64,000 bases of DNA, taken from the NCBI GenBank assembly GCA_035438985.1, contig DAORJK010000005.1, forward strand, positions 47,757-111,756. Direction: 5' to 3'. The position numbers and the translations under genes were made by a program. Positions 4,727 to 62,136 of this stretch are shown piece after piece; within the stretch, counting starts at the first letter, position 1, and the number at the start of each line of letters is the position of its first letter. The notes under the pieces were generated by a model, which did no database searches, had not been told where the DNA came from, and saw only the letters and a program-made list of their open reading frames with translations. Source of the DNA: Bacteroidia bacterium. Lineage in GTDB: Bacteria > Bacteroidota > Bacteroidia > UBA4408.

Positions 4727-5692
4727 ATGCAATTTAAATCAGAATCAGAAGCCGTTGATTTTTTTGTTGGAAAATACAAAGAACTCAACAACGAAATTGG
4801 TAAGGTAATTATTGGTCAAAATGAGGTAATCAGAGATGTGCTTATTTCTATTTTTAGTCGCGGACATTGTTTATTGGTTGGAGTTCCAGGATTAGCAAAA
4901 ACCTTGTTGGTTAATACCATTGCCGAAACTTTAGGATTGCAGTTTAGTCGCATTCAATTTACTCCCGACTTAATGCCTTCAGATATTATTGGTTCAGAAA
5001 TTTTGGATGAGAGCCGAAATTTTCGTTTCATAAAAGGTCCTCTTTTTGCAAATATTGTGTTGGCAGATGAAATTAACCGAACTCCTCCCAAAACACAATC
5101 ATCCTTGCTTGAAGCAATGCAGGAACGTGCTGTTACTGCAGCAGGAAAACGATACGAATTGGGAAACCCATTTTTCGTGCTCGCTACCCAAAATCCAATT
5201 GAACAGGAAGGTACCTACCCTCTTCCTGAAGCACAACTCGATCGATTTATGTTTAATGTGTGGCTCGATTATCCAACTTACTCTGAAGAGTTGCAAGTAG
5301 TTAAAAATACCACATCCGATAAAAAGGTTACTCTATCGAAAGTGATGGACGATAAACAAATTGTCTTTTTTCAGGATTTAGTTCGAAGAATTCCGGTTGC
5401 AGAAAATGTGATGGAATATGCTGTTAAACTGGCTATAAAATCGCGACCTAATTCAGAATTAGCCCCTGATATTGTTAAAAAATATGTAACCTGGGGAGCC
5501 GGCCCACGTGCTTCACAGTTTTTAATAGTAGGTGCAAAATGCCATGCAATGTTGCAAGGAAAATACTCTCCCGATATTGAAGATGTAAAAGCGGTTAGCA
5601 CAGCTATTTTGCGTCATCGCATTGTTAGAAATTACAAAGCTGAAGCAGATGGAGTAAGCGTTGATAGTATTATACTGGAACTTACTCGCTAA
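4727..5692 (+). CDS. MoxR-family AAA+ ATPase
   Basis: Walker A GVPGLAKT and the conserved MoxR core (LADEINRTPPKTQSSLLEAMQE...ATQNPIEQEGTYPLPEAQLDRF). Confidence 0.85.
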   Translation: MQFKSESEAVDFFVGKYKELNNEIGKVIIGQNEVIRDVLISIFSRGHCLLVGVPGLAKTLLVNTIAETLGLQFSRIQFTPDLMPSDIIGSEILDESRNFRFIKGPLFANIVLADEINRTPPKTQSSLLEAMQERAVTAAGKRYELGNPFFVLATQNPIEQEGTYPLPEAQLDRFMFNVWLDYPTYSEELQVVKNTTSDKKVTLSKVMDDKQIVFFQDLVRRIPVAENVMEYAVKLAIKSRPNSELAPDIVKKYVTWGAGPRASQFLIVGAKCHAMLQGKYSPDIEDVKAVSTAILRHRIVRNYKAEADGVSVDSIILELTR

Positions 5693-5715
5693 TTTTTTTT
5701 AAATTGTACGAATAA

Positions 5716-6336
5716 ATGGAATTAAATAACATTGCCGAATTTCAATCGAGTCCTGGAATTCGTGAAAAATTGCGTTCGTTTGGTACTGTAAAAAAATTTA
5801 AGGAAGAAGAAATTGTTTTACAAGAAAATGCCTTTATTAAAGCTATTCCTATTGTACTTACCGGCTCCATTCGAGTGATGCGCACGGATGAGGATGGACG
5901 AGAACTATTGTTGTATTACATCAAACCCGGTGAAAGTTGTATCATGTCCTTTTTAGGAGGAATACACAGCGATACCAGTAAAGTAAAAGCGATTGCAGAA
6001 GAGTCTACCGAATTATTGTTTATTCCTATTGAAATGGTAGCATCACTTAGTAAAGAGTTTCCTGAATGGCTCGATTATATTTTTAGATTGTATCACAAAC
6101 GCTTTGAAGAATTACTGGAAGTGGTAAACGACATTGCGTTTAAAAAAATGGACGAGCGATTAATAAATTTCATTCGAAAAAAATGTGAGCTGGCTAAAAG
6201 CCATACACTTCATGTAACACACGAACAAATTGCGGCCGAACTTGGAACTGCACGTGTGGTAATTTCACGTTTGCTAAAACACATGGAAGATGAAAAACTC
6301 GTTCAATTAGGACGAAATAAAATTACCCTTCTTTAA
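5716..6336 (+). CDS. Crp/Fnr-family transcriptional regulator
   Basis: N-terminal cNMP-binding-like beta-roll and a C-terminal HTH (EQIAAELGTARVVISRLLKHMEDEKLV). The recognition helix is FNR-like (ISR). There is no N-terminal Cys cluster, so it is not an Fe-S FNR. Confidence 0.8.
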   Translation: MELNNIAEFQSSPGIREKLRSFGTVKKFKEEEIVLQENAFIKAIPIVLTGSIRVMRTDEDGRELLLYYIKPGESCIMSFLGGIHSDTSKVKAIAEESTELLFIPIEMVASLSKEFPEWLDYIFRLYHKRFEELLEVVNDIAFKKMDERLINFIRKKCELAKSHTLHVTHEQIAAELGTARVVISRLLKHMEDEKLVQLGRNKITLL

Positions 6337-6372
6337 TAGTTTGTTTTATCAACCTTAATCAAATTTATTTGC

Positions 6373-6395
6373 TATGTAACAAAAGTTACTGTAGC
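6373..6395 (+). promoter_or_regulatory. Candidate Crp/Fnr-type operator site 1 (TATGTAACAAAAGTTACTGTAGC), containing the near-perfect palindrome GTAAC-N4-GTTAC. It lies 39 nt upstream of the -7 box CACTTTTG at 6412-6419.
   Basis: The same left half-site recurs at 6721 and 8967, each at identical spacing from a TAnnTTTG -7 box. Confidence 0.45.
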
Positions 6396-6454
6396 TCTCA
6401 GTTTGTATTTCCACTTTTGGTGCACATTAATATTCACCTTAAAAAAGAAAACTT

Positions 6455-6661
6455 ATGAAACCAAACATGGGAACCCTCGACAAAGCAATTAGAATAATAG
6501 TAGCTATTGGTATTGCTGCATTGTATTATTTCGATAAAATTTCAGGAATAACTGCAACAATAGGTTTAGTGCTTGCAGGCATTTTTATAGTTACCAGCTT
6601 TATGAGTTTTTGTCCACTTTATTTGCCTTTTGGATTTTCAACTCGAAAAAAGACAGAGTAA
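6455..6661 (+). CDS. DUF2892 (YgaP-like) small membrane protein
   Basis: 68 aa with two TM helices and a C-terminal CPLY motif typical of the DUF2892 domain. This domain is otherwise found fused to the rhodanese YgaP. Confidence 0.65.
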   Translation: MKPNMGTLDKAIRIIVAIGIAALYYFDKISGITATIGLVLAGIFIVTSFMSFCPLYLPFGFSTRKKTE

Positions 6662-6720
6662 AATTTCATTCAACTGCCTTTAATATTTCTGTAGCTTTTT
6701 AAAGAACTCAAAAAAGGAGC

Positions 6721-6743
6721 TATGTAACAAAAGTTGCTGTGCA
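6721..6743 (+). promoter_or_regulatory. Candidate operator site 2 (TATGTAACAAAAGTTGCTGTGCA), 39 nt upstream of the -7 box TACTTTTG at 6760-6767.
   Basis: The left half-site is identical to sites 1 and 3. The right half is degenerate. Confidence 0.4.
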
Positions 6744-6785
6744 ATACTTTTTCGCATTCTACTTTTGTACTTCAATTTTTTACTC

Positions 6786-8141
6786 ATGGAAATAAAACAA
6801 TTCGAAGACAAAAACCTTGCACATTATTCCTATGCAATAATCAGTAATGGAGAAATTGCATTGGTTGACCCGGCTCGTGATCCACAGCCTTATTATGATT
6901 TTGCGACAAGTCGTAAAGCAAAAATTACTGCTGTAATTGAAACGCATCCTCATGCCGATTTTGTAAGTAGCCATCTTGAAATTTCAAAACATACAGGAGC
7001 AAACATCTATGTAAGTAAATTGGTTTCTGCCGAATACGAACATGTTTCTTTCGATGAAGGGGATGCGCTTATGATTGGTTCGGTTACTTTAAAAGCACTC
7101 AACACACCAGGTCATTCTCCCGATAGTATAAGTGTGCTCTTGTTGGATGAAAATGGAAAGGAAATAGCTGTATTTAGTGGTGATACCTTATTTATTGGCG
7201 ATTGCGGACGTCCTGATTTACGTGAACAAGCTGGAGCAATCACGGCTGCCAGAAGTGAATTGGCCAAACAGATGTATCATACACTGCGAAATAAATTTAT
7301 TCCATTATCCGATTCGGTTATTGTATATCCTGCGCATGGTGCAGGAAGTTTGTGTGGAAAAGGATTGAGCGATGCTGCCTCAAGTACAATGGGTGCCGAA
7401 AAATTAAGCAATTGGAGTTTAGGTAACATGTCTGAAACAGATTTTGTTAACTCCTTATTGCAAGACCAACCTTATGTTCCTAAGTATTTTCTGCACGATG
7501 TAACTTTGAATAAAAAGGGCGCAGCAGATTTTACAAAAAGTATACAATCATTAGAGATTCGTGATACTATAACTTGTGCAGGTTGTGCCAACTCATTAAA
7601 TCCAAATTATATAATTATCGATACTAGACCAGAAGCGATTTTTAAAGCTTCACATCTTAAAAATGCAATCAATTTAATGAACGATTTAAAGTTTGAAACT
7701 TGGCTTGGAAGTATAATTGATCCTAACGAAAAATTCTACTTACAAGCACAGAATGAAACAGAATTAAACACACTTATTAAACGCATTGCTAAAATTGGTT
7801 ATGAAAATCAAATTGAGCTTGCTTTTATTTCTGAATTTGGAAATGAAGCATCGCCAATGTTTCCTGCTGAGGAATTTGAATTATCTACCGAGAATTTCAC
7901 CATTGTTGATTTGCGGACAGCTGCAGAAAGGGTGGCTAAAAAAATATTTTCTAGATCCTATCATATTCCATTAGCTGAATTACGTGAACGTTATCCCGAA
8001 ATCCCAACTGATAAACCTATTGTTGTCCATTGTGCCGGAGGTTACAGAAGTGCAGCCGGAGCAAGTATCTTAAGTTCTAAAGTTAAGGCAAAAATTCCGG
8101 TTTATGATTTCAGTGAACGCATTAAACAAGTTGCACAATAG
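6786..8141 (+). CDS. MBL-fold metallo-hydrolase (persulfide dioxygenase-like) fused to two rhodanese domains, CstB-like in architecture. The ORF-track TTG start at 6765 overlaps the -7 box, so the ATG at 6786 is preferred.
   Basis: An HxHxDH motif (ETHPHADFVSSH) with downstream His residues (NTPGHSPD, YPAHGAGS), and a C-terminal rhodanese with an active-site Cys loop (VVHCAGGYRSAAGA). Confidence 0.8.
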   Translation: MEIKQFEDKNLAHYSYAIISNGEIALVDPARDPQPYYDFATSRKAKITAVIETHPHADFVSSHLEISKHTGANIYVSKLVSAEYEHVSFDEGDALMIGSVTLKALNTPGHSPDSISVLLLDENGKEIAVFSGDTLFIGDCGRPDLREQAGAITAARSELAKQMYHTLRNKFIPLSDSVIVYPAHGAGSLCGKGLSDAASSTMGAEKLSNWSLGNMSETDFVNSLLQDQPYVPKYFLHDVTLNKKGAADFTKSIQSLEIRDTITCAGCANSLNPNYIIIDTRPEAIFKASHLKNAINLMNDLKFETWLGSIIDPNEKFYLQAQNETELNTLIKRIAKIGYENQIELAFISEFGNEASPMFPAEEFELSTENFTIVDLRTAAERVAKKIFSRSYHIPLAELRERYPEIPTDKPIVVHCAGGYRSAAGASILSSKVKAKIPVYDFSERIKQVAQ

Positions 8142-8181
8142 ATTGGACTATTTAATATATCCAGATAATTTAAACCAAGCT

Positions 8182-8370
8182 ATGAATTACCTTATTAAAC
8201 ACAAACTAACAATAATAGGTATCGTTTTAGGAAGCATTTCAGGATTTGCCTATTCTTATTTTATTGGCTGCGAAAGCGGGTCTTGCGCAATAACTTCTTC
8301 CCCATTTAATAGCTCACTCTATGGTGCAGTAATGGGTGGATTACTTTTCTCCATGTTTGAAAAATCTTAA
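8182..8370 (+). CDS. Small membrane protein with a CxSGSC motif (DUF6132-like). The ORF-track start at 8104 overlaps the upstream gene, so the ATG at 8182 is preferred.
   Basis: The sequence MNYLIKHKLTIIGIVLGSISGFAYSYFIGCESGSCAITSS...GAVMGGLLF has two hydrophobic helices and a Cys pair. It sits between rhodanese genes. Confidence 0.5.
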   Translation: MNYLIKHKLTIIGIVLGSISGFAYSYFIGCESGSCAITSSPFNSSLYGAVMGGLLFSMFEKS

Positions 8371-8394
8371 TTGACTTATGAAAAATTATAAAAA

Positions 8395-8685
8395 ATGAAT
8401 ATAGCACAAGTACTTAAACAAAAAAACGGAACAATTGTAGATGTAAGAACTCCTGTTGAATTTAGCGGTGGACATGTTGCAGGATCCATTAATATACCCT
8501 TACAGGAAATAAATCATCGAATAGAAGAACTTTCTCAGTTAAAAATGCCACTTATTTTATGTTGTGCTTCTGGCGGTCGAAGCGGTGTTGCACAGCAAGT
8601 ACTAAGTGCTAGTAATATTGAATGTTACAACGCAGGTTCATGGTTGGATGTAAATTATTTAGTATCAAAAACTACCGTAGAATGA
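8395..8685 (+). CDS. Single-domain rhodanese (sulfurtransferase) with a CX4R loop
   Basis: Active-site loop LILCCASGGRSGVA. It is a paralog of the gene at 61846-62136. Confidence 0.8.
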   Translation: MNIAQVLKQKNGTIVDVRTPVEFSGGHVAGSINIPLQEINHRIEELSQLKMPLILCCASGGRSGVAQQVLSASNIECYNAGSWLDVNYLVSKTTVE

Positions 8686-8748
8686 ATTCGAAAATAGTTT
8701 TACTTTTGATTCACAATCCTACGAACTAATACAACTTACTTTCTATCT

Positions 8749-8949
8749 ATGAAAAATAATTTTATACTCGCTTCCTTAGTTGCTTTGTTAGTATTTGGAT
8801 GCAATTCGCAACCGGCCAATGAAAAAAATGCAGGAGCCGGCGACAGCACTCAAACAGCTGCATTATATGTATGCCCAATGCATCCGGAAGTTACCAGTGT
8901 TAAAGCCGATACATGCAGCAAGTGCGGTATGGATTTAGAAAAAAAATAA
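8749..8949 (+). CDS. Small lipoprotein consisting only of a heavy-metal-binding domain (HMBD, the CusB-N-terminal type)
   Basis: Signal peptide with lipobox (LLVFGC) followed by YVCPMHPEV...CSKCGMDL. This matches the YxCPMHP...CPxCGM HMBD signature. Confidence 0.6.
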   Translation: MKNNFILASLVALLVFGCNSQPANEKNAGAGDSTQTAALYVCPMHPEVTSVKADTCSKCGMDLEKK

Positions 8950-8966
8950 ATTGGAATTATTTTTCT

Positions 8967-8989
8967 TATGTAACAAAAGTAGCTGTGTA
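8967..8989 (+). promoter_or_regulatory. Candidate operator site 3 (TATGTAACAAAAGTAGCTGTGTA), 39 nt upstream of the -7 box TACCTTTG at 9006-9013.
   Basis: Same half-site and same spacing as sites 1 and 2. Confidence 0.4.
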
Positions 8990-9038
8990 TAGCTTATTTC
9001 AGGTGTACCTTTGCATCTGAAATTAAACTAAAATTAGC

Positions 9039-9356
9039 ATGATACAGTTACTAAAAAAAATGTTGGGACTTGGACCAACTGTTGATTACAAAACACTTGT
9101 TGCCAATGGAGCAATTGTACTTGATGTTCGCACCAAAGGGGAGTTTCAAACTGGGCACATTAAAGGTTCTGTTAATATTCCTTTACAAAATTTAGCGGGC
9201 GGTAGTTCAAAGCTGGCTAAAAATAAAGTTATAATTACTTGCTGTGCATCAGGAATGAGAAGCGCTTCAGCTAAGAGTATGTTACGATCGGCAGGGTTTT
9301 CGGAAGTACATAATGGAGGTGGATGGATGAGTTTACAAAACAAACTCAATCGATAA
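9039..9356 (+). CDS. Single-domain rhodanese
   Basis: Active-site loop ITCCASGMRSASA. Confidence 0.8.
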   Translation: MIQLLKKMLGLGPTVDYKTLVANGAIVLDVRTKGEFQTGHIKGSVNIPLQNLAGGSSKLAKNKVIITCCASGMRSASAKSMLRSAGFSEVHNGGGWMSLQNKLNR

Positions 9357-9415
9357 ATTTCCTAATCTCTCTACTTAGAAACTTTCAGTTTCATTTATTA
9401 ATAACGAATAGAACT

Positions 9416-9844
9416 ATGGATGCACATTATTATAATGTTGATTTAGTTTGGAAAAAAAATCGATTAGGTGAATTAAGTTCAATTGAACTTACTGATAAAA
9501 TTGAAGTTGCAACTCCACCCCCATTTGCAAAAGGAATTGAAAAAATATGGTCACCCGAACATCTTTTTACTGCCAGTGTTAACAGTTGCTATATGACCAC
9601 ATTTTTAGCAATTGCCGAAAACTCAAAACTCGAATTCATAACCTTTGAATGTTCCGCTAGCGGCAAACTTGAACAGATCGAAGGAAAGTATGCTATTACA
9701 GAAATAGCTTTAAAACCCATACTTAAACTGGTGTCAGATAAAGACAAGGAACGCGCTGAACGAATTTTGCAAAAATCGGAAGCAGCATGTTTAATTTCCA
9801 ATTCAATTAAATCAAAAGTATCTTTGCAAACAACTATAGTTTAA
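9416..9844 (+). CDS. OsmC/Ohr-family protein. The start is trimmed to the ATG at 9416, because the ORF-track start at 9323 overlaps the preceding rhodanese.
   Basis: OsmC core PEHLFTASVNSCYMTTFLAIAE with a conserved Cys. Confidence 0.7.
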   Translation: MDAHYYNVDLVWKKNRLGELSSIELTDKIEVATPPPFAKGIEKIWSPEHLFTASVNSCYMTTFLAIAENSKLEFITFECSASGKLEQIEGKYAITEIALKPILKLVSDKDKERAERILQKSEAACLISNSIKSKVSLQTTIV

Positions 9845-9847
9845 AAA

Positions 9848-10156
9848 ATGGCAACAAAATTTTCAGATTTAATAAATAGTGATGTTCCTACATTAGTTGA
9901 TTTTTATGCTGAATGGTGCGGACCTTGCAAACAAATGAAACCCATATTAGAATCAGTAAAAAACACAGTAAAAGACCAAGCAAGAATCCTAAAAATTGAC
10001 GTTGATAAAAATCCTCAATTGGCTGCTTCTTTTAATATTCAAGGGGTACCTACCTTATTGCTTTTTAAGTCTGGAGAAGTAAAATGGCGACAATCGGGAG
10101 TAGTTTCTTCTCAGCAACTTAATTCAACATTGGCAAAATTTATCGCAAATGCTTAA
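9848..10156 (+). CDS. trxA: Thioredoxin
   Basis: WCGPCK active site and a 102-aa Trx fold. Confidence 0.85.
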   Translation: MATKFSDLINSDVPTLVDFYAEWCGPCKQMKPILESVKNTVKDQARILKIDVDKNPQLAASFNIQGVPTLLLFKSGEVKWRQSGVVSSQQLNSTLAKFIANA

Positions 10157-10547
10157 AAATATTCTTTATTCAACCCTCTGGAATAAATGCCCTAGGTGTC
10201 ATCAAACATCCGTATTTATTGAAAAAAACCCGTATAATCTGAAAAGATTGTCGCACATGAATACCGCTTGTTCGAACTGTGGCGAAAAATTTGAAAAAGA
10301 ACCCGGTGCTTATTATGGAGCCATGTATGTAAGCTATGCCTTAATGGTTGGATGGTTTGTGGTGTGCTGGGGAGTGGATTCATTTTATATACATTCCGAA
10401 ACGATTCATTTTCTTGCTTTTGTCATAGTTTCTATTGTGCTTTTTATGCCACTCACTTTTCGTATTTCAAGATTACTATGGCTTAATTTTTTTATCAAGT
10501 TTGATAAAACTAAAATTATACCCGGCAATTCATTTAATAATCAGTAA
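10149..10547 (+). CDS. DUF983 family protein with a zinc-ribbon and TM helices. Its ATG overlaps the trx stop in an ATGCTTAA arrangement.
   Basis: CPRC...CSNC zinc-ribbon pairs followed by hydrophobic helices. Confidence 0.6.
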   Translation: MLKNILYSTLWNKCPRCHQTSVFIEKNPYNLKRLSHMNTACSNCGEKFEKEPGAYYGAMYVSYALMVGWFVVCWGVDSFYIHSETIHFLAFVIVSIVLFMPLTFRISRLLWLNFFIKFDKTKIIPGNSFNNQ

Positions 10548-10559
10548 CCCTATTTTTTA

Positions 10560-11282
10560 ATGAAATTAATTAAATCGCTTACTATTTTGCTAATAGTAAT
10601 AACTTACAGTTGTACAGGATTACCTTCTCAAAATAATGCTACAACACTTTCGGTAGTTGACTTTTCAAAAAAAATAAAAGAAATACCCGATGCACCCATA
10701 CTTGATGTTCGAACTCAGGAAGAGTTTGAGAGTGGACACTTAAAAGGTGCAAAAAATATTGATTGGAATGCCGATGACTTTGATTCTAAAATTTCCGTTT
10801 TTGATAAAAATCAAGCGGTATTTGTATATTGTTTGAGTGGTGGAAGAAGTTCTTCAGCTGCCGAAAAAATGCGTTCCATTGGCTTTAAACAAGTGTACGA
10901 AATGGAAGGTGGTATTATGAAATGGCGTAACCAGAATCTGGAATTAGAAGTTGCTGCAGGGAATTCTGAAAAAACTGGAATGACCAGCGAACAATTTACA
11001 ACCTTGGTAACTTCTTCCATACCTGTATTGGTTGATTTTTATGCCGATTGGTGTGTTCCATGTAAAAAAATGAAGCCTTATCTGGATGAATTAACTCGGG
11101 AATATGCAGGTAAGGTTAAGGTGCTTCGAATTAATGCAGATGAAAATCCGACGCTTTGTAAATCACTACAAATAGATGCCCTTCCGGTATTATTATTATA
11201 CAAAAACAATACTCAGGTATGGAAGAATATCGGTTTTATCGACAAAACCTCAGTTGTTTCACAATTGAAGGCAGTTGAATAA
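10560..11282 (+). CDS. Lipoprotein that fuses a rhodanese domain to a thioredoxin domain
   Basis: Lipobox (ITYSC), a rhodanese loop (VYCLSGGRSSSAAE) and a Trx motif (DFYADWCVPCKKM). Confidence 0.75.
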   Translation: MKLIKSLTILLIVITYSCTGLPSQNNATTLSVVDFSKKIKEIPDAPILDVRTQEEFESGHLKGAKNIDWNADDFDSKISVFDKNQAVFVYCLSGGRSSSAAEKMRSIGFKQVYEMEGGIMKWRNQNLELEVAAGNSEKTGMTSEQFTTLVTSSIPVLVDFYADWCVPCKKMKPYLDELTREYAGKVKVLRINADENPTLCKSLQIDALPVLLLYKNNTQVWKNIGFIDKTSVVSQLKAVE

Positions 11283-11320
11283 TTGCATGTTTAGTATCTT
11301 GTGGCAATCATTTTTGTTTC

Positions 11321-11989
11321 ATGTTTAAAAATGCACTTTTTTATATTTCCAGTTTTATAATCGAACGTGAAGTAATTCGCACTTCATCGAAGCACAACAG
11401 AGAGCTAAAAGTTGTTTTAAACAATGGAAAATTAGTGTTGAATTCAGGAAAAGCAAATTACTCTTTTGGAAATTTGCACAAGGTTTTTCAAAAAGTATTT
11501 TCACGTACCCAACTCGCTAAGAAAAATATTAAATCGGCATTGCTACTTGGGTTTGGAACCGGTAGTGTTGCGCATATTTTACGCAATGAATTAAAAATGA
11601 ATTGCCCTATTACCGGGGTCGAACTTGATTCAGAAGTTATAAAATTGGCACATCAATATTTTAAGCTGGCGAGTATACCTGATTGCAAAATTTATGAACA
11701 AGATGCTCAAGAATACATTCAATCAACAAAAGAAAAGTACGATTTAATTGTGGTGGATGTTTTTCATGAAATAGAAGTACCTGATGAGTTACTTCAAGCT
11801 TCTTTTATTGAGCATTTAAAAAATAGACTCACTGCAGCCGGACTAGTGTATTTTAACTTTGTAGTAGATAATTCCAATCAGCGAAATCAACTTACCCAAT
11901 TAAAACAAGTATTTAGCCAACAATTCAGCAACAACAAGACCTATCAGCTGCTCGAGTGTAATTATGTGTTGGTTGGTTTTAAGGAATAA
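11321..11989 (+). CDS. Spermidine-synthase-like class I SAM-methyltransferase-fold protein
   Basis: LLLGFGTGSVAHIL...ITGVELDSEVI...YDLIVVDVF resembles the spermine/spermidine synthase family. Confidence 0.5.
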   Translation: MFKNALFYISSFIIEREVIRTSSKHNRELKVVLNNGKLVLNSGKANYSFGNLHKVFQKVFSRTQLAKKNIKSALLLGFGTGSVAHILRNELKMNCPITGVELDSEVIKLAHQYFKLASIPDCKIYEQDAQEYIQSTKEKYDLIVVDVFHEIEVPDELLQASFIEHLKNRLTAAGLVYFNFVVDNSNQRNQLTQLKQVFSQQFSNNKTYQLLECNYVLVGFKE

Positions 11990-12084
11990 AAATACCTTAA
12001 AATTCGCCTCACTGCAATTGATTTACATTTGCACATTCACACATTTAGCTTACATTTGCACTCCAAAAAATTAAAATTATAATT

Positions 12085-12645
12085 ATGGCAACAACTTCAG
12101 ATATTGGCGTAGGGTCATTTATTCGTTTCAACAATGAATTGTGTTTAATTACTGAATATCAACACCGCACTCCTGGTAACTTAAGAGCATTTTATCAGGC
12201 TAAAATGAAAAACTTTAAATCCGGAAAATCGGTTGAATATCGTTTTCGTTCGGGTGAAGAAGTTGAATTAGCACGTGTTGAATACCGCATGTTGCAATAC
12301 ATTTATGCTGAGGGCGATAATATAGTGTGCATGGACAATGCAACTTTTGAGCAATTGGAAATTCCTTCAAATTTATTTGGTGAAGGTTTAAATTTCATGA
12401 AAGAAGGCATGGAAGTTAAAGTGGCATTTGAAAACGAATTACCCATTGCTGCTGAACCTCCGACATTCGTTGAATTGGTAATTACCTACACCGAACCCGG
12501 CTTAAAAGGCGATACTGCTACCAACACATTGAAACAAGCCACTGTTGAAACCGGTGCTATTATTAATGTTCCTTTGTTTTGTAATGAAGGCGATAAAATT
12601 AAAATTGATACACGCACCTTTAGCTACAGCGAGCGTGTTAAATAA
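12085..12645 (+). CDS. efp: Elongation factor P
   Basis: Characteristic EF-P N-terminus and length (186 aa). Confidence 0.9.
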   Translation: MATTSDIGVGSFIRFNNELCLITEYQHRTPGNLRAFYQAKMKNFKSGKSVEYRFRSGEEVELARVEYRMLQYIYAEGDNIVCMDNATFEQLEIPSNLFGEGLNFMKEGMEVKVAFENELPIAAEPPTFVELVITYTEPGLKGDTATNTLKQATVETGAIINVPLFCNEGDKIKIDTRTFSYSERVK

Positions 12646-61845: not shown

Positions 61846-62136
61846 TTACTTGGTTGGCTTAGGTTTTAAAGCATTCAATTCTAACCAAGAGCCTCCGGCA
61901 AATGTATTGCCAACACCTTGTTGAGAAAGGAAGATATGTGCATGACGGCAATCATTTCCAGATCCGCAACATAATACAAGAGGTTTGCTCATTTTTTTTA
62001 ATTCTTCCAACTTGGCGGGAATATCTTTTAATGGAATATTTAACGAGTCGGGAATGTGTCCTTTTTGAAATTCAGCTGTTGGCCGCACATCCACTATCGT
62101 GTGTCCTGGAGATTTTAAAATTTCTTTAAGTTCCAT
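61846..62136 (-). CDS. Rhodanese-fold protein with an extended CX5R (Cdc25/arsenate-reductase-like) active-site loop. It is a paralog of the gene at 8395-8685.
   Basis: VLCCGSGNDCRHAH loop. The overall sequence aligns with the CX4R paralog. Confidence 0.65.
   Translation of the reverse strand: MELKEILKSPGHTIVDVRPTAEFQKGHIPDSLNIPLKDIPAKLEELKKMSKPLVLCCGSGNDCRHAHIFLSQQGVGNTFAGGSWLELNALKPKPTK

Follow-up and report, generated by a model that had tools for sequence, protein, structure and literature searches.

A Crp/Fnr-family regulator and its putative operators at sulfur-related genes in a Bacteroidia genome and its relatives in Bacteroidota

Within the Crp/Fnr superfamily, CRP binds cAMP through Glu72, Arg82 and Ser83 and reads TGTGA-N6-TCACA sites with an RETVGR helix, FNR carries a four-Cys [4Fe-4S] motif and an ETISR helix for TTGAT-N4-ATCAA sites, and CooA is a haem-based CO sensor, an activator of class II promoters in which Cys and His haem ligands replace the nucleotide. 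The analysis described here concerns another member of this superfamily, encoded by a gene at 5716..6336 (+ strand) of a 64-kb stretch of DNA from a metagenome-assembled genome (MAG) of a Bacteroidia bacterium (GCA_035438985.1, contig DAORJK010000005.1, positions 47,757 to 111,756; hereafter "the window"), and three repeated sequences that lie downstream of this gene, in front of sulfur-related transcription units. Promoters activated by NtcA, the cyanobacterial 2-oxoglutarate-responsive member of the superfamily, contain GTA-N8-TAC centred at −41.5 (PMC3898017), a box that NtcA reads via Arg186, Val187, Thr190 and Arg191, with Val187 discriminating against CRP, which has Glu at that position (PMC11850224). 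The sequence GTAACnnnnGTTAC is the published consensus for HcpR2, which regulates hcp in Bacteroides, Clostridium, Thermotogales and Treponema (Rodionov et al., 2005; PMC1274295). A 2026 review of reactive sulfur species (RSS) names only CsoR-, ArsR- and Fis-type proteins as primary sensors and the MarR-family SscR, OxyR and PerR as secondary ones, mostly from Firmicutes and Proteobacteria; it includes no Crp/Fnr-family RSS sensor, and the control of sulfide detoxification in free-living Bacteroidota is not described there (PMC13467558). A different "CRP-like motif" has been noted at sulfide-regulated genes in a Chlorobaculum preprint. No published description of the present regulator or its regulon was found in the full-text literature, subscription-only literature being outside the scope of that search.

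The 14-mer TATGTAACAAAAGT is present in exactly three copies in the window (6373-6386, 6721-6734 and 8967-8980), all on the + strand, compared with a mean chance expectation of 0.01 exact matches; none of 100 dinucleotide-preserving shuffles contained three. Each copy begins 39 nt before an 8-mer of the −7 type, namely CACTTTTG (6412-6419), TACTTTTG (6760-6767) and TACCTTTG (9006-9013), which confirms to the nucleotide the positions and spacing proposed in an earlier note on this DNA. The full sites read T-GTAAC-AAAA-GTTAC-TGT (operator 1, 6375..6392, +), T-GTAAC-AAAA-GTTGC-TGT (operator 2, 6723..6740, +) and T-GTAAC-AAAA-GTAGC-TGT (operator 3, 8969..8986, +), the last being the commonest form in other genomes. 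Site 1 had been described as a near-perfect palindrome, which is right as to the palindrome but understates it: the core GTAAC-AAAA-GTTAC (6376-6389) is a perfect 5-4-5 inverted repeat, and the right arm has one mismatch in site 2 (GTTGC; core 6724-6737) and two in site 3 (GTAGC; core 8970-8983). When the composite pattern TGTAAC-N4-GTNRC-N23-A-NN-TTTG, derived from the positions conserved in relatives, was searched with up to two mismatches, only these three sites were found in the 64 kb (0.28 expected). Apart from the operator and the −7 box, the sequences of the three promoters are dissimilar, so the three did not arise by duplication of a single cassette.

Genome-wide mapping of transcription start sites (TSSs) in Flavobacterium psychrophilum places the sigma-A element TAnnTTTG at −12 to −5 (PMC9723704). 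By this box position, the core operators of the window would lie at −48 to −35, with the dyad centre at −41.5, as the earlier note had estimated, and the TSSs would fall at about 6424, 6772 (14 nt before the ATG at 6786) and 9018. In the explanation that we favour, to which as a whole, including the mechanism set out below, we give a probability of roughly 0.7, the three repeats are operators of the adjacent Crp/Fnr regulator, centred at about −41.5 and overlapping the −33 regions of Bacteroidota sigma-A promoters.

To avoid circularity, metagenome contigs were scanned with the 18-mer TGTAACAAAAGTAGCTGT alone, which yielded 137 occurrences in 120 loci. TTTG was found at the same offset in 111 of the 137, and the first genes downstream encode metallo-beta-lactamase (MBL)-rhodanese fusions (34), full-length TauE (33) and DUF2892 proteins (17), as well as DUF6132, DUF983 and rhodanese proteins. 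Forty-five matches combine this geometry with 3 kb or more of flanking sequence upstream, and in 40 of them (89%) an orthologue of the regulator precedes the site on the same strand; the same is true of 3 of the 11 matches without the geometry. This search also revealed a second regulator clade, approximately 60% identical, whose loci are arranged as regulator, site, TauE, site, MBL-rhodanese and a YeeE/YedE pair. Further members in some loci are a type II sulfide:quinone oxidoreductase (SQR; E 1e-111 to human SQOR), a TPMT-type methyltransferase, a 1-Cys peroxiredoxin and DUF2202. The same operator stands ahead of SQR, a DUF2202-SQR pair or a CoA-disulfide-reductase-rhodanese fusion in several loci (L133:5028-6302, L134, L145:2192-3652 and L057:7734-9377).

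The converse comparison started from the regulator, which has homologues in thousands and orthologues of 70-80% identity across Bacteroidota. Eighty genome loci with regulators in this identity range were collected from Flavobacteriales (Crocinitomicaceae, Fluviicola, Owenweeksia), Chitinophagales, Sphingobacteriales and Cytophagales, and the loose pattern GTAAC-N4-G-N3-C matched 192 times in them. Among the 112 matches with any TTTG at +34 to +46, it stands exactly at +40 from the G of GTAAC in 107, the same register as in the window. At offsets that the pattern does not impose, conservation reaches 97% for T−1, 92% for A+5, 92% for A+7, 100% for T+10 and 100% for a purine at +12, and further 3′ it is 82% for G+15, 83% for T+16 and 99% for A+37 (the last across 101 sites with TTTG at +40, in support of the −7 box of promoter 1). 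Offsets +22 to +35 carry approximately 0 bits, so that the spacer between operator and −7 box is unconserved; a fixed distance to TTTG across an uninformative spacer indicates two functional elements held at a set distance. In total, the distance from the first core G to the TTTG of the −7 box is exactly 40 nt at all three operators of the window and at more than 200 further sites.

An operator-only 18-nt position weight matrix (PWM), scored over both strands of the genome loci (827 kb in all), gave 146 matches. Of these, 128 fall on the coding strand no more than 5 kb beyond the end of the regulator gene, 110 of them with TTTG at +40. Outside that zone TTTG stands at +40 in only 1 of 18, a site just behind a regulator gene missed by the open reading frame (ORF) caller. 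At least one operator site is present downstream of the regulator in 74 of 79 loci. The possibility raised in the earlier note, that the motif is frequent or part of a generic cassette, thus disagrees with its absence elsewhere in the window, with its concentration in relatives directly downstream of the regulator and with the unconserved spacers, and the proposal that the sites are operators of the adjacent Crp/Fnr protein in front of three sulfur-related units gains strong in silico support from the 74 loci and the motif-first scan. Nor is the regulon confined to this genome; it is widespread in Bacteroidota. The usual order in the genome loci is regulator, site, DUF2892, half-size TauE, site, MBL-rhodanese, DUF6132, HMA, rhodanese, rhodanese, OsmC, small Cys-rich membrane protein, thioredoxin and rhodanese-thioredoxin, and some loci add a CoA-disulfide-reductase-rhodanese fusion, DUF302 and Dps.

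The regulator (206 aa) belongs to the Crp/Fnr superfamily: it consists of a beta-roll cNMP-type domain (Pfam cNMP_binding, PF00027, residues 26-111, E 1.2e-11) and a C-terminal Crp-type helix-turn-helix domain (HTH_Crp_2, PF13545, residues 148-206, E 2.1e-10), and its PDB matches include Crp-family structures. It scores far below the NCBIfam cutoffs for CRP (NF008732; 49 bits, cutoff 266), the NtcA equivalog (TIGR03697; 45 bits, cutoff 245) and FNR (NF008365; 27 bits, cutoff 228). Among 33 PDB sequence matches, the nearest were the uncharacterised Crp/Fnr protein 3dv8 (E 1e-22), then NtcA (E 1e-12), and CRP, and the P. gingivalis HcpR structure was not recognisable by name among them. The recognition helix reads R180-V181-V182-I183-S184-R185, in agreement with the VVISR of the earlier note, and is invariant in both regulator clades. 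R180, V181, S184 and R185 correspond to R186, V187, T190 and R191 of NtcA, with Ser in place of Thr, and with R, V, S and R at the NtcA base-reading positions, recognition of a GTA-type half-site is predicted. Linkage in both search directions, the combination of an invariant helix with an invariant half-site, and the lack of any other linked regulator all link the sites to this protein, which very likely binds the three of them.

Site 1, as GTA-ACAAAAGT-TAC, is a perfect NtcA box; sites 2 and 3 differ in ending in TGC and AGC, and the family consensus is GTA-N8-AGC. Site 1 also matches the HcpR2 consensus GTAACnnnnGTTAC exactly, with one and two mismatches in sites 2 and 3, so that the operator cannot be called novel, as it had been in the earlier note (PMC1274295). 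HcpR2 further resembles the present regulator in belonging to the same superfamily, in having no FNR-type Cys cluster and in controlling a small local regulon beside its own gene. However, HcpR2 has Pro at the position of CRP Glu181 (PMC1274295), where Val181 is found here in all orthologues examined, and its target is hcp, in nitrosative stress, whereas no hcp is linked to the regulator here. No Hcp was found among the Pfam-scanned genes of the window or the scanned target representatives; BLAST labels for the other targets in the 200 loci were rhodanese, MBL, TauE and the like, some ORFs receiving no label. Judged from these features, the regulator is not HcpR2 by that protein's defining characteristics, and it is not NtcA either, from which it differs in phylum (its host being a Bacteroidia MAG), regulon and probable effector. 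With FNR and FixK at class II promoters it shares the dimeric Crp/Fnr fold and a 5-4-5 inverted repeat, here with a predicted centre at −41.5 over the upstream promoter element, but FNR differs in its helix (ETISR against RVVISR), its half-site (TTGAT against GTAAC) and its N-terminal Cys cluster, which is missing here; CRP differs in having Glu181 at the position of Val.

The regulator contains only two Cys residues, Cys75 and Cys157, and no FNR-type Cys cluster. Cys75 is invariant in clade 1 (80/80) and present in 41/42 members of clade 2, and His84 is found in at least 90% of clade 1 and in 41/42 of clade 2; Cys157 is not conserved. A HMMER alignment to NtcA matches Cys75 with the Gly of the FGVL stretch, which in NtcA structures lines the 2-oxoglutarate pocket, and Thr87 with the effector-binding Arg (R88 in NtcA numbering). 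An NtcA-guided alignment places Ile76 and Thr87 at the positions of CRP Glu72 and Arg82, although the alignment of this loop is uncertain. Since Cys75 replaces the pocket Gly and Thr87 aligns with the effector-binding Arg, a nucleotide or 2-oxoglutarate looks unlikely as the ligand, and the Cys/His pair would occupy the pocket instead. The two residues recall the haem ligands of CooA, from which the regulator differs in Cys-His spacing (C75-x8-H84 here) and to which no significant specific similarity was seen; haem binding by the regulator is pure speculation.

The following mechanism is proposed. A dimer of the regulator would read TGTAAC-N4-GTnRC through its NtcA-like helix (R180, V181, S184, R185) and, once activated by its signal, would recruit RNA polymerase in a class II manner to promoters that have a good nAnnTTTG −7 box but a weak cTG −33 element. 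Genes of the cst type would thereby be switched on, so that sulfane sulfur derived from persulfide or sulfide could be converted to sulfite or thiosulfate and the products handled. The targets in the window would be the genes for DUF2892, a CstB-like persulfide dioxygenase-rhodanese, rhodaneses, OsmC and thioredoxins, to which relatives would add a TauE sulfite exporter, YeeE/YedE, SQR, the CoA-disulfide-reductase-rhodanese and the TPMT-type methyltransferase. The signal would most likely be sulfide or persulfide, sensed at Cys75 and His84, which appear to be positioned where CRP and NtcA bind their effectors.

The role of the promoter elements in this scheme depends on the region just 3′ of the core. 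The conserved cTG at offsets +13 to +15 would lie at approximately −35 to −33, 20 nt from the −7 box, a distance that fits the TTG-N17-23-TAnnTTTG frame quoted for Flavobacterium; we infer that it is a weak −33 element overlapping the promoter-proximal half-site, and the degeneracy of that half-site (GTnRC) may tentatively be ascribed to this overlap. A non-palindromic extension, CTGTRCAG, is conserved 3′ of the operator (6389-6396, 6737-6744 and 8983-8990 in the window; offsets +13 to +20, approximately −35 to −28) and may represent the weak −33 element (cTG) or additional protein contacts. Many copies of site 1 could be written as a second dyad or hairpin, GTAGCTG-TG-CAGCTAC; over 247 unique sites, however, Watson-Crick pairing at seven candidate pairs equalled the expectation from column frequencies. 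Without covariation, CTGTRCAG forms neither a hairpin nor a second dyad and is conserved as sequence only. Rfam gave no match at E <= 1 over 5000-12500, and a scan of 5500-12200 for sigma-70 promoters and intrinsic terminators, made without a model of Bacteroidota promoters, gave no enrichment relative to shuffles.

Several observations weigh against the assignment of the sites to this regulator as an activator of sulfur detoxification. The two arms of the consensus site differ, the right one being mostly GTAGC and a perfect GTTAC in only about 4%, an asymmetry that is unusual for a symmetric dimer. Five motif-first matches with the correct geometry lack a nearby regulator; they may be distal regulon members. 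SQR, TauE and YeeE/YedE are all absent from the 64-kb window, and the regulator has one conserved Cys per subunit, compared with the Cys pairs of known persulfide sensors. It is very improbable that TGTAAC represents the −35 element of an extracytoplasmic function (ECF) sigma factor, part of a generic duplicated cassette or the site of an unlinked factor. TGTAAC resembles some ECF −35 elements, such as that of B. subtilis sigma-X, and the three copies in the window have 14 identical bases in common, but no conserved CGT/CGAC-type −10 element is seen 16-17 nt downstream, offsets +21 to +28 carrying approximately 0 bits, and the element conserved along with the site is a sigma-A −7 box at a distance of 40 nt. 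The differences between the window promoters outside operator and −7 box leave no room for recent duplication, the linked genes include neither a sigma factor nor a further regulator, and the Crp/Fnr protein, whose gene lies upstream in 89% of the assessable motif-first matches, has a helix that matches that of a binder of GTA-type sites (NtcA). The direction of control is less settled, because the −7 box dominates promoter strength in Bacteroidota and a protein centred at −41.5 could equally occlude the −33 region and repress. The same protein on the same sites would then block −33 by binding at −48 to −35 until a signal, for example persulfidation of Cys75, released it, as with CstR, SqrR and BigR; the CsoR- and ArsR-family RSS sensors (CstR, SqrR/BigR) are indeed repressors freed by sulfane sulfur (PMC13467558), the −7 boxes here are good (A+37 in 99%, and TTTG) in a phylum that relies mainly on this element, and the site overlaps the expected −33 position. 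Occlusion, however, would allow variable positions, whereas a centre at −41.5 fixed to a single nucleotide in more than 200 promoters is a signature of class II activation in the Crp/Fnr family, NtcA is a documented activator from −41.5 (PMC3898017), and a −33 element of cTG rather than TTG or TTTG fits dependence on an activator. Repression is thus considered unlikely, and the constant position and the weak −33 element favour activation as the probable mode of control.

The signal is the part of the proposal on which the odds are closest, reactive sulfur being given a slight preference because the content of the regulon matches that of the CstR, SqrR/BigR and FisR regulons (PMC13467558). CstR (CsoR family), SqrR/BigR (ArsR family) and FisR (a sigma-54 activator) control the persulfide dioxygenase-rhodanese (CstB/Blh), rhodaneses, SQR, CoA-persulfide reductase, TauE and YeeE/YedE (PMC13467558). 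They differ from the regulator described here in that their folds are unrelated to Crp/Fnr, and CstR, SqrR and BigR are, in addition, repressors that use a Cys pair, whereas control here is probably positive and each subunit has one conserved Cys and one His. The regulon also includes HMA and HMBD, Dps, peroxiredoxin and TPMT genes, so a metal, metalloid or oxidative signal is possible. Regulator and sites would in that case be as proposed, or the regulator could act as a repressor, while the signal would be an unspecific thiol or oxidative stress, or else metals or metalloids (Cu, Hg, Se, Te); such a signal would suit the HMA and HMBD proteins, Dps, 1-Cys peroxiredoxin, OsmC, thioredoxins and TPMT-type methyltransferases of relatives, and a Cys/His pair is able to bind metal or haem. 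Against it, the core and commonest targets, namely the CstB-like fusion, TauE, rhodaneses and YeeE/YedE, together in some loci with SQR and the CoA-disulfide-reductase-rhodanese, constitute the gene set of RSS regulons (PMC13467558), and no metal efflux pump was seen; we regard this explanation as rather doubtful.

What is new at this locus, as far as sequence comparison can indicate, appears to be a regulator subfamily with an invariant Cys75 and a nearly invariant His84 that is apparently dedicated to sulfur detoxification; an ordinary architecture, the class II Crp/Fnr promoter, would serve a function, and probably respond to a signal, with which the Crp/Fnr family had not been associated before. 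A bolder view, which we hold only tentatively and at less than even odds, is that this subfamily is a new structural class of dedicated sulfide/persulfide sensor beside those of CsoR, ArsR and Fis type, the main one of the non-Bacteroidales Bacteroidota, exerting, in contrast to CstR, SqrR and BigR, positive class II control through a single Cys75 with His84 in the former nucleotide pocket. Sensing could then involve persulfidation, or exchange of a ligand on a haem or metal held by the protein, in place of a polysulfide bridge between two Cys residues. Sulfide and sulfane-sulfur sensing in bacteria is an active field, and free-living Bacteroidota are abundant in freshwater, soil and sediments with fluctuating sulfide, for which the present analysis offers a concrete candidate: one regulator family, a defined 18-bp operator, a fixed promoter architecture, two candidate sensing residues and at least one cultured carrier, Fluviicola chungangensis (L056). 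The sites also provide a clean natural example of the class II type at the unusual −33/−7 promoters of Bacteroidota, useful for promoter engineering in the phylum, and should the signal prove different, a well-defined new regulon of ordinary type would still remain.

The genes of the locus, all on the + strand, agree by Pfam with the downstream targets named in the earlier note (DUF2892, the persulfide dioxygenase-rhodanese fusion and a rhodanese-OsmC-thioredoxin operon). The first target gene, at 6455..6661 behind operator 1, encodes a DUF2892/YgaP-like transmembrane protein (PF11127, E 2e-18), the most frequent first gene behind the regulator in orthologous loci, where the position of operator 1 is also kept. 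Operator 2 precedes the gene for a CstB-like persulfide dioxygenase fused to two rhodanese domains (6786..8141; Lactamase_B and two Rhodanese domains), and a site ahead of orthologues of this MBL-rhodanese is conserved. The fusion matches PDB entries 3tp9 (E 1e-66), 3r2u (E 5e-53) and human ETHE1 4chl (E 3e-13); 3r2u is a Staphylococcus aureus entry of the MBL family, annotated merely as "metallo-beta-lactamase family protein". Its start is placed at ATG 6786 and not at TTG 6765, because the N-termini of homologues agree on the former. It is followed by genes for a DUF6132 small membrane protein (8182..8370; PF19628), located behind the MBL-rhodanese gene in most orthologous loci, and a single-domain rhodanese of 96 aa (8395..8685; Pfam Rhodanese), a conserved operon member. 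A further single-domain rhodanese gene, at 61852-62136 on the − strand, is far from the cluster; its product is 42% identical to the 8395-8685 rhodanese, and no operator match lies upstream of it.

A gene for a lipoprotein with a heavy-metal-binding domain (HMBD; PF19335) at 8749..8949 is a lineage-specific insertion directly ahead of promoter 3, and none of the 80 genome loci had a gene labelled as its homologue. Operon 3 (9039..11282; assigned by Pfam) encodes a rhodanese (9039-9356), an OsmC-like protein (9416-9844), a thioredoxin (9848-10156), DUF983 (10149-10547) and a rhodanese-thioredoxin fusion (10560-11282), with short intergenic gaps or overlapping genes, and may extend to a SpeE-like methyltransferase gene at 11321-11989. 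Among 200 loci, only one (L128:5172; regulator 91% identical) has, like the window, a third site before the rhodanese-OsmC-thioredoxin-DUF983-rhodanese-thioredoxin-SpeE-like genes, whereas in the others the rhodanese-OsmC-thioredoxin genes prolong the MBL-rhodanese operon; the third promoter and operator (8749-9013 in the window, with the HMBD gene) are thus lineage-specific. Another protein that recurs in the regulon, usually encoded between OsmC and thioredoxin (for example L001:4750-5001 and L028:12224-12481, and many others), is a membrane protein of approximately 83 aa that has a Cys-rich loop (GCAAGNCFGGSC) and matches no Pfam family; its gene is absent from the window.

The flanking genes are of the housekeeping kind (PPIase, MoxR, EF-P, LpxD and a SpoIIE-type phosphatase), and, as the earlier note had maintained for the cluster, the Crp/Fnr protein is the sole DNA-binding regulator encoded between 2.4 and 15 kb. 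A gap of 23 nt (5693-5715) separates the moxR-type AAA ATPase gene (4727-5692) from the regulator ATG, and no operator is found upstream of the regulator gene in the window. The regulator gene probably shares a transcript with moxR or has its promoter within that gene, and there is no obvious sign of autoregulation. Autoregulation was considered and set aside: in addition to the window with its lack of an upstream operator, weak PWM matches within the regulator coding sequence were seen in four loci, without the −7 geometry. At the other end of the gene, operator 1 in most orthologous loci starts within the last sense codon and stop codon of the regulator (...CTT RTG TAA C; for example L016:2823 and L010:6618), which makes the C-terminal residue Val or Met there; in the window, by contrast, the regulator ends in ...LL* at 6336 and operator 1 lies 40 nt further downstream. 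Two outliers complete the set of loci. In a Pseudopedobacter MAG, a GTAAC-N6-GTTAC sequence with 5-6-5 spacing (L077:6750-6765) stands upstream of DUF2892 without the usual −7 box at +40, and in another locus (L051:6679-6696) the regulator has been kept together with a degenerate orphan site (TGTAACAAAATTGCT), the target genes having been lost.

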